64,000 nt of DNA from Conexivisphaerales archaeon (GTDB lineage Archaea > Thermoproteota > Nitrososphaeria > Conexivisphaerales > DTJL01): NCBI GenBank assembly GCA_049509455.1, contig JBEKZX010000002.1:26485-90484 (forward strand). The letters are read 5' to 3'. The translations under genes and the position numbers were made by a program. Below, piece after piece: positions 3,050 to 28,955 of the stretch. How positions within the stretch are numbered: the first letter of the stretch is position 1; every line of letters begins with the position of its first letter. Under the pieces are notes generated by a model. It had not been told where the DNA came from and ran no database searches. It saw nothing but the letters and a program-made list of their open reading frames with translations.

Positions 3050-3079
3050 CTGTCAGCAAGTAGGGATGCCTGCCGGGAG

Positions 3080-3210
3080 GCCGGGATTCAAACTTCAAGC
3101 CCGACAGCTCAGCCTGGTTAGAGCGCCAGCCTCCTTCGAAGGGCGATACTCATAATCTGGAGGTGGACGCGAGCCACCAGAAGTCGAGGGTTCGAAACCC
3201 TCTCCCGGCA
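3080..3210 (+). tRNA. tRNA-Met(CAT), probably elongator, with three BHB introns: 8/9 (3088-3105), 30/31 (3130-3147), 45/46 (3163-3182)
   Basis: Removing the three segments gives GCCGGGA-TA-GCTC-AGCCTGGTTA-GAGC-G-CCAGA-CTCATAA-TCTGG-AGGTC-GAGGG-TTCGAAA-CCCTC-TCCCGGC-A. Each junction has a perfect 4-bp central helix (CGGG/CCCG, CGCC/GGCG, CTGG/CCAG) with 3-nt bulges. Confidence 0.9.
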
Positions 3211-27446: not shown

Positions 27447-27454
27447 CTTAAAAA
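27447..27454 (+). promoter_or_regulatory. TATA box of tRNA-Thr(GGT) gene
   Basis: CTTAAAAA placed so that +1 falls at about 27477-27478. Confidence 0.55.
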
Positions 27455-27489
27455 CTCCCACTGGGTCGTGGCTTCAAGAGCCCCGGAAG

Positions 27490-27602
27490 GCCCCGGTACC
27501 TCGTCAGTGCCCGAGGCTGGAAAGCATAGTGGTCGAATGTGCTTCCTTGGTAGACTCGATACAAAGAGGAAGAGACCGCGGGTTCAAATCCCGCCCGGGG
27601 CT
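27490..27602 (+). tRNA. tRNA-Thr(GGT) with introns at 8/9 (27498-27522) and 37/38 (27553-27566)
   Basis: Spliced sequence GCCCCGG-TA-GCAT-AGTGGTCGA-ATGT-G-CTTCC-TTGGTAA-GGAAG-AGACC-GCGGG-TTCAAAT-CCCGC-CCGGGGC-T; U73 discriminator is typical of archaeal tRNA-Thr. Confidence 0.88.
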
Positions 27603-27680
27603 CCTTTTCAGAGGCGTCTAGAGTATGGTCTGACGCATGTCGCCAATTCAGAATCGAACGCATCTATCCCCTCGTGTGAG

Positions 27681-28128: not shown

Positions 28129-28204
28129 GGGGCCGTGGGCTAGCCTGGTCCACGCTACCAGCCTTGGGCGCTGGTGATCGGCGGTTCAAATCCGCCCGGC
28201 CCCA
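28129..28204 (+). tRNA. tRNA-Pro(TGG), intronless
   Basis: GGGGCCG/CGGCCCC acceptor, CCAGC-CTTGGGC-GCTGG anticodon arm, GGCGG-TTCAAAT-CCGCC T-arm. Confidence 0.93.
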
Positions 28205-28205
28205 C

Positions 28206-28955
28206 CTATTCCTTTCCCGATGCGATAATCTCAGAAGCCTTTCCAGAAGCAACCTTCTTCAGCTGAAGGTCCCGGACTTCGTAGCCGTACCTGCCGATGC
28301 GAAGCCTCTTCAAGAATGGGGCTACCGTCGACGGAGGGCCTGGCCTGTAGCCTGCCCGCGACGCATACCTGCTAAAATGGGGCAACATGATGACCTTGGC
28401 AGGCTTGACCCCATGACCTTTCAAGGTAAGCCACACAGGACTCCATTCTCCGTTGACAATCCACTGCGGATGCACATGACCGCATACCATCATGTCATAT
28501 GACTCCGGGCTCTCAGCCAGCCTAGGCAGGGAATGCCCATGCATGAAAACTGTCTTCTCGATTTCTAGCCCACCTTTTCCGACGATTCTTACTCGCTCGT
28601 CCAAACATTCCTCGATTCCATAGTCATGGTTGCCTTTCATGACCCACACTTCGAAGTCTTCCGCTAGGCCCTCCGTCAGGCTTCTCAGCGCTTTCCTCTC
28701 ATGCATGGTAGGCTCAAATATTCTATGCTTGAGGTCCCCCAGCACGATGATGTTATGTGCGTCCGCTTGATGGCAAGCCAAGACGACCCTTTCAAGGACA
28801 TCCTTGGCTTCCTCTTCCGGAGAAGGTCTTCGCAGCCCCATCCAAGCAGTCATCCCGATATGAAGGTCGCTTATGACTAGGAAGAGTCTGCCATCCCTTG
28901 TTCGCGCGACCAAAGCGGGGAATCCCTTTAACGGCGTTACCTTCAAACACACCAT
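28206..28955 (-). CDS. Calcineurin-like metallophosphoesterase
   Basis: SDLHIG, LGDLKH, KGNHD, MHGH, GHVHP; start refined to the ATG at 28955. Confidence 0.9.
   Translation of the reverse strand: MVCLKVTPLKGFPALVARTRDGRLFLVISDLHIGMTAWMGLRRPSPEEEAKDVLERVVLACHQADAHNIIVLGDLKHRIFEPTMHERKALRSLTEGLAEDFEVWVMKGNHDYGIEECLDERVRIVGKGGLEIEKTVFMHGHSLPRLAESPESYDMMVCGHVHPQWIVNGEWSPVWLTLKGHGVKPAKVIMLPHFSRYASRAGYRPGPPSTVAPFLKRLRIGRYGYEVRDLQLKKVASGKASEIIASGKE

Follow-up and report, generated by a model that had tools for sequence, protein, structure and literature searches.

Non-canonical and multiple BHB introns are known from the tRNA genes of archaea such as the Thermoproteales and Thaumarchaeota (PMC4090602, PMC4033280; tRNAscan-SE 2.0, PMC8450103), and the tRNA-Thr(GGT) gene described here shows the same bulges, 4-bp central helix and flanking helices. 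Its host genome further resembles those systems in that it encodes two EndA paralogs together with RtcB, and several of its tRNAs contain two or three introns. Introns near tRNA ends are described in the full-text literature searched on archaeal tRNA introns, which covered the principal reviews, the description of tRNAscan-SE 2.0 and a preprint from 2026 about tRNA introns in Asgard archaea; no description was found there of a leader that takes over the pairing of the 3' acceptor strand.

Split tRNAs, found in Nanoarchaeum equitans, Caldivirga and Staphylothermus (PMC4090602, PMC3218864), rely on the same kind of G+C-rich helix made from leader sequence outside the tRNA, which enables BHB formation and ligation and which also covaries between species. 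Unlike them, tRNA-Thr is one contiguous gene with one promoter, and its helix joins the leader to its own 3' acceptor strand. The helix is not adjacent to the BHB and would not be removed by the endonuclease, while it mimics the mature stem and competes with it. A split or trans-spliced tRNA was rejected for this locus, as the gene is contiguous behind a single TATA box (27447-27454), and so was a leader helix of the split-tRNA type, as the helix pairs nt 66-74 and is parted from the BHB by a spacer and the whole tRNA body.

The permuted tRNAs of Cyanidioschyzon merolae and Thermofilum pendens (PMC3978253, PMC3218864) have the same terminus-to-terminus pairing in their processing. However, their paired termini form a BHB and are ligated into a circle, whereas tRNA-Thr has its parts in the usual order and its termini make up a simple helix. 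Duplication of a piece from the 5' part of a tRNA has also been reported for tRNA-Thr(GGU) of Caldiarchaeum subterraneum (PMC3293823), the same isoacceptor in a related archaeon. In that case the fragment measures 27 nt and is found at a distance of 1.8 kb to 500 kb, and the introns occupy positions 24/25 and 45/46. In the tRNA-Thr gene described here the copy spans 9 nt and lies upstream at a distance of 3 nt; it is conserved, shows covariation and is not accompanied by a mobile element nearby. A target-site duplication was rejected as a reading of the leader copy. An att-site duplicate left by a mobile element was also rejected, the two copies being 3 nt apart and flanked by a synthetase gene and tRNA-Pro.

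The tRNA-Thr(GGT) gene occupies positions 27490-27602 of the window, the whole stretch of 64,000 nt that was analysed (G000:C53:26485-90484). The host genome is archaeal, 2.05 Mb in size, with 58% G+C and 140 contigs, and a whole-genome DNA search found the locus once, as the sole detected copy. The gene is flanked by tRNA-Pro and by the gene of a class I aminoacyl-tRNA synthetase, and no Pfam match to an integrase domain was obtained in the three scanned ORFs adjoining it. The locus is laid out as follows:

27447-27454, plus strand: TATA box, an 8/8 match to the consensus 8-mer of the tRNA promoters of the host genome
27478-27486, plus strand: candidate stand-in strand in the leader, a copy of acceptor nt 1-7 with two further bases that pair with nt 73-74
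27487-27489, plus strand: spacer that parts the mature 5' end from the leader copy, 3-5 nt long and unconserved in sequence among the Thr orthologs
27490-27497, plus strand: exon 1 (nt 1-8), with T (U8) following the acceptor strand in every ortholog; the spliced product is a perfect cloverleaf
27498-27522, plus strand: non-canonical BHB intron of 25 nt at 8/9, on whose removal ARAGORN calls tRNA-Thr(GGT)
27523-27552, plus strand: exon 2 (nt 9-37), comprising D arm and 5' half of the anticodon stem, with GGT as anticodon at 27549-27551 (Rfam alignment, ARAGORN)
27553-27566, plus strand: canonical intron of 14 nt at 37/38 (ARAGORN)
27567-27602, plus strand: exon 3 (nt 38-73; Rfam alignment, ARAGORN cloverleaf)
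27578-27594, plus strand: T arm, within exon 3
27595-27601, plus strand: 3' acceptor strand, within exon 3
27602, plus strand: discriminator U73, within exon 3
27595-27603, plus strand: 3' side of the leader helix, made up of nt 66-73 and the trailer base next to them (pairing, covariation register, RNAalifold)

ARAGORN misses the gene when run on the native sequence of 27478-27604, and the Rfam tRNA model covers only positions 9-63 (27523-27594, 33.8 bits). Once 27498-27522 is deleted, ARAGORN recognises a perfect tRNA-Thr(GGT), in which the acceptor stem has 7 bp and U8, A9, U73 and the 14-nt canonical intron are in place. The leader segment 27478-27486 forms nine Watson-Crick pairs with 27595-27603. 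The initial annotation had given the leader nine pairs with the 3' strand, which is correct, and had let the partner segment end at 27604, which is not, since that base is unpaired.

The splice motif of the 8/9 intron is composed of four elements:

27499-27503 with 27512-27516: inner helix of 5 bp
27492-27495 with 27517-27520: central helix, 3/4 pairs in the host genome, with one C.U mismatch (27494/27518)
27496-27498 and 27521-27523: bulges of 3 nt each on opposite strands
27490-27491 with 27524-27525: outer helix of 2 bp

All of these, together with the 25-nt intron itself, had been proposed before and are present in the sequence. Relaxed BHBs are frequent by chance (preprint 10.64898/2026.10.13.758758), and for this reason the central helix alone, with three of its four pairs, is not significant. 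In this gene, however, the motif is backed by the boundaries fixed by the cloverleaf, the presence of both flanking helices, the covarying inner helix and the four pairs in one ortholog. The inner helix covaries in two orthologs (G001 and G003, a double change), and it is in G008 that the central helix has 4/4 pairs. The length of the intron varies from 14 to 25 nt among the orthologs. RNAalifold shifts the register of the central helix by one base, which would not yield a canonical BHB; the unshifted register has the canonical geometry, leads to the correct product and is the one with 4/4 pairs in G008. As in archaeal BHB introns generally, the geometry of the bulges is found, the cloverleaf is restored on removal and the host contains genes for the endonuclease and the ligase.

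The leader helix of tRNA-Thr exceeds chance expectation. Five tRNAs of the host genome have an intron at 8/9, 9/10 or 10/11, and each of the five has a helix of 8-10 bp between the leader and the 3' strand. These are Thr, Met, Asn(GTT) on C116, Gln(CTG) on C75 and a gene with a C1-G72 pair on C71. In 29 ordinary tRNAs of the same genome, nt 66-76 pair with the 30-nt leader over at most 2-6 bp, and only 0.74% of 1078 non-cognate pairings of leaders with 3' strands reach 8 bp. The central BHB helix of the five genes uses acceptor nt 3-6, 4-7 or 5-8. Complementarity of the leader to the gene's own 3' strand, together with a BHB built on acceptor nt 1-8, is thus found in five genes of the host and 27 orthologs in the family, and is absent from the 29 ordinary tRNAs and from orthologs that have no such intron. 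Among the genes compared, introns located at about 13/14 or deeper, with a central helix off the acceptor stem, are not accompanied by a leader copy. Taken together, and as far as the sequences allow one to judge, the leader helix seems to be under selection and to go with introns near the acceptor stem. A tRNA of G006 (on contig C10) with an intron at about 13/14 shows a weak partial leader copy of 6 bp, which is within the chance range (11% of the non-cognate pairs), and its counterpart on G000:C60 has none.

The genes were collected in several ways. A scan from the T arm, for 3' strands with two upstream partners, recovered Met and Thr, and the Asn and Gln genes were found by reading genes with long 5' parts. 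A stricter scan in which a TATA box was required recovered Thr, Met and Gln, added the gene on C71 and missed Asn, which has a G.U pair in its leader helix. Two looser scans for duplicated strands gave mostly noise and were discarded.

Comparison was made within a family of nine genomes in four genera (g1-g4). The leader copy, exon 1 and the 8/9 intron of tRNA-Thr(GGT) are kept in 8/8 orthologs from the four genera, genomes that are related, so that counts across them are not independent. In the MAFFT alignment of the Thr genes the only invariant islands upstream are the TATA box, the leader copy and exon 1. The stretch of about 22 nt from the TATA box to the copy, the spacer of 3-5 nt and most of the intron diverge between genera. 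The TATA box is itself kept in 8/8 orthologs and ends 23 nt ahead of the leader helix, and the copy stays at a fixed distance from it. A survey of relatives had been suggested as a check on the leader, and the outcome is in line with the proposal, as the copy is retained while the leader around it has diverged. In one Thr ortholog the leader has a C-to-U change, with a G.U pair retained.

Covariation was read in a register of 27 intron-bearing genes aligned on nt 66-76. The leader base that pairs with nt 68 in tRNA-Asn forms a C-G pair in g1 and a U-A pair in g3 and g4, and the matching base of the real 5' strand changes in parallel, which makes three positions that shift in concert. Seven genomes have G-C where the tRNA-Gln leader pairs with trailer nt 74, and G006 has A-U there; for the Thr leader and nt 75, two genomes show A-U and one shows U-A. 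These Gln and Thr bases lie outside the mature tRNA, and their covariation is therefore not a by-product of exon copying. The discriminator is Watson-Crick paired with the leader in all 27 genes. Differences between the leader and the real strand mostly preserve pairing as G.U, and some are terminal mismatches; the mismatches within the leader helix are one C.A in Asn of G005 and one U.C in Gln of g1. In the consensus folds that RNAalifold computed from the sequences only, Thr and Asn each show the leader helix as well as the pairing of nt 1-2 with nt 10-11.

The tRNA-Met(CAT) gene of the window has a similar arrangement:

3071-3079, plus strand: leader copy, pairing over 9 bp with 3202-3210
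3080-3087, plus strand: exon 1
3088-3105, plus strand: 8/9 intron of 18 nt, with boundaries fixed by intron-less orthologs

[quoted passage not shown] Both the 8/9 intron and the copy are present in the four genomes of g1, and neither is found in the orthologs of g2, g3 and g4, where the longest leader helix is 3-5 bp. In tRNA-Asn(GTT) the intron and the copy occur together in seven genomes, and both are missing from G001, which belongs to the same genus as the host genome. For tRNA-Ser(TGA), the gene of G006 has an 8/9 intron and a leader copy of 8 bp, and the gene of the host genome has neither. According to the initial annotation, each leader fits its own acceptor stem through selected RNA pairing and not through shared ancestry, and this view is borne out by comparative and computational evidence, namely conservation, covariation, joint presence or absence, the distance from the promoter and the consensus folds.

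Several features of these genes may be mentioned here. The tRNA-Met(CAT) of g1 (window 3080-3210) contains three introns, at 8/9, in the anticodon loop and in the variable region, and the latter two are common to the other genera, which do not have the 8/9 intron. The tRNA-Asn gene of G001 (G001:C15) shows an exact loss of the 22-nt 8/9 intron and of an 11-nt segment, the leader copy with the spacer; its promoter and upstream sequence are still homologous, which makes this a clean paired loss of the intron and its helper. In tRNA-Gln(CTG) of the host genome (G000:C75:45284-45440) the first intron is best placed at 10/11 and not at 8/9, with a central helix that uses nt 5-8; G10 is then invariant, and a G/A difference between genera comes to lie inside the intron. 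The 3' half of the anticodon arm in this tRNA is broken by a second, long intron.

The position of the promoter indicates how much of the leader is likely to be transcribed. In 25 ordinary tRNA genes of the host genome with a recognisable TATA box, the mature 5' end is located at a median of 26 nt behind the box, with a tight cluster at 25-27 nt, and most pre-tRNAs of this genome should therefore have leaders of only about 3-4 nt. An outlier is tRNA-Pro (window 28129-28206), with a spacing of 42 nt. In Thr, Met, Asn and Gln the mature end is 30-36 nt behind the TATA box, while the leader copy, at 22-25 nt, stands at about the ordinary distance. In archaea the TATA box is usually centred near -26, and transcription of tRNA-Thr is predicted to start at about 27477, one base ahead of the leader helix. 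The segment 27478-27489, whose absence from the transcript had been named as an outcome that would speak against a role for the leader, falls inside this predicted transcript. These distances suggest that the leader copy occupies the ancestral position of the tRNA 5' end. Behind the gene a run of T (27605-27608) looks like an archaeal terminator, and with a start at about 27477 the 9-bp helix would join the two ends of the primary transcript.

Energies of alternative folds were calculated with the ViennaRNA nearest-neighbour model (kcal/mol, 37 C):

Unspliced precursor, leader helix with full BHB: -40.0
Unspliced precursor, acceptor stem with D stem: -35.6
Unspliced precursor, BHB with the 3' strand free (no leader helix): -19.7
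Both introns removed, leader helix forced: -41.7
Both introns removed, acceptor stem forced: -36.2

In the model, the leader helix turns the splice-competent fold from strongly disfavoured to favoured, and the minimum-energy fold of the precursor retains this helix at 37, 60 and 80 C. With the introns removed the leader helix is still favoured, by 5.5 kcal/mol at 37 C, 2.2 at 60 C and 0.8 at 80 C. Calculated nearest-neighbour energies do not account for a displacement of the leader after splicing, and its release would thus have to rest on tertiary folding, modification or capture by RNase P.

The computed evidence, which comprises the arrangement of the gene, its conservation and covariation, the co-occurrence of copy and intron, the distance from the promoter, the fold energies and the set of enzyme genes, makes it probable that the leader is a stand-in acceptor strand, which would free nt 1-8 for the splice motif, tether the 8-nt exon and be displaced after splicing. 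The order of events, with cleavage, tethering and strand exchange, is one that we infer. The primary transcript would start near 27477 with the copy of the 5' acceptor strand. In the precursor this copy, and not the real nt 1-7, would pair with the 3' acceptor strand and on through the discriminator to the first trailer base, giving a pseudo-acceptor stem of 9 bp. The freed nt 1-8 could then build the BHB with the 3' end of the 8/9 intron, nt 3-6 forming the central helix and nt 1-2 pairing with nt 10-11. The predicted two-subunit splicing endonuclease would cut at 27497/27498 and 27522/27523, and the leader helix would hold the 8-nt exon, joined to the leader, to the body of the tRNA until ligation by RtcB. 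Finally, the real strand would displace the copy and RNase P would take off the leader of about 13 nt. The tethering would resemble the role of the complementary leaders that hold the halves of split tRNAs together (PMC4090602, PMC3218864).

The helix might instead be selected mainly for timing or protection, blocking RNase P, RNase Z, CCA addition or aminoacylation until splicing has taken place or shielding the ends, without being required for the formation of the splice motif. Its position at the extreme 5' and 3' ends of the predicted transcript would suit such a function, as would the fact that it always includes the discriminator and often nt 74-76, bases that the end-processing enzymes need unpaired. 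We regard this as unlikely, because it gives no account of why the copy is confined to tRNAs that build the intron motif on acceptor nt 3-8 and is missing where a tRNA has its one to three introns elsewhere. In the energy model, moreover, the BHB fold without the leader helix is 16 kcal/mol worse than the acceptor-stem fold. The two roles could coexist.

A copy without function, left over from the mutation that gave rise to the intron, for instance a tandem duplication or the scar of a mobile element, is very improbable. It is true that the copy sits at the ordinary distance of a tRNA 5' end from the TATA box, which would fit a duplication of the 5' end, and that integration of mobile elements leaves tRNA fragments and creates introns in a related archaeon (PMC3293823). 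A relic, however, would not be expected to stay conserved in four genera while the adjacent bases diverged completely, or to be lost whenever the intron is lost. Both sides of the leader pairs covary, including trailer bases that were never in a duplicated exon; the two copies do not flank the intron and the three scanned neighbouring ORFs contain no integrase domain. Hardly any weight can be given to the reading in which the upstream copy (27480-27486) is the true 5' end of the tRNA and the downstream copy is part of a longer intron. Perfect pairing with the 3' strand and normal promoter spacing would agree with it, but U8 is found behind the downstream copy only, in 27/27 genes, and the base behind the upstream copy varies. 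The spacer in Gln of G007, G005 and G008 is 0-1 nt, which leaves no room for a splice-site bulge. The upstream copies also carry G.U pairs and mismatches and pair with the discriminator, unlike a mature acceptor stem, while splicing at 8/9 yields a perfect cloverleaf. A second BHB that would remove the leader was rejected as well, as there are no suitable bulges.

The stand-in reading bears on a structural problem that has not been addressed, since an intron placed within the acceptor stem or next to it calls for a splice motif that cannot coexist with the mature fold. A stand-in strand encoded in the leader would solve acceptor-proximal splicing in a simple way, and as a short, mutable element it is directly testable. 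It would also link cis-spliced genes mechanistically to split tRNAs. For annotation it is relevant that gene finders miss or truncate such genes and may set the 5' end at the wrong copy. Gain and loss of an intron paired with its copy within one genus offers a rare view of the turnover of tRNA introns. Tentatively, and with somewhat less than even confidence, one may think of a general, undescribed class of cis-acting pre-tRNA elements, in which BHB introns that use the acceptor stem need a stand-in strand at the terminus of the transcript that serves as folding switch and exon tether and enforces splicing before end maturation; the copy may then be the ancestral 5' end, with the introns having arisen through duplication of the first strand.

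The leader-copy pattern of tRNA-Gln is found in 7 of 401 sampled genomes of the class, a sample dominated by two large families, and all seven are of the same family. For the Thr pattern, one genome per species across the whole collection yielded six archaeal MAGs of the same family and six bacterial sites, the latter without a tRNA body and taken as chance matches. The restriction to the family applies to these particular Thr and Gln genes only. In G010 and G011, from other families of the order, the sole match to a 5'-truncated tRNA is tRNA-His, which has an intron in the T loop and no leader copy. The tRNA-His of G010, a complete genome (G010:C1:1509049-1509274), has this T-loop intron together with a genomically encoded G-1, and shows neither a leader nor a trailer copy.

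The host genome encodes two EndA paralogs (PF01974, 94.7 and 67.5 bits), RtcB (490 bits) and a full-length archaeal RNase P RNA (186 bits). The EndA paralogs are located on contigs C130 and C108. The model of the RNase P-T form (RF02357) matched no genome, control genomes included. Only two types of endonuclease are able to cut non-canonical introns, one of which is the (alpha-beta)2 type (PMC5829648), and the presence of two EndA paralogs would fit an enzyme of this kind. RtcB (G000:C108:22430-25716) is encoded in one frame of 995 amino acids, in which the Pfam match is split into two parts (positions 1-54 and 45-426) about 1.3 kb apart, suggesting an intein. One of the EndA paralogs directly adjoins the RtcB gene.
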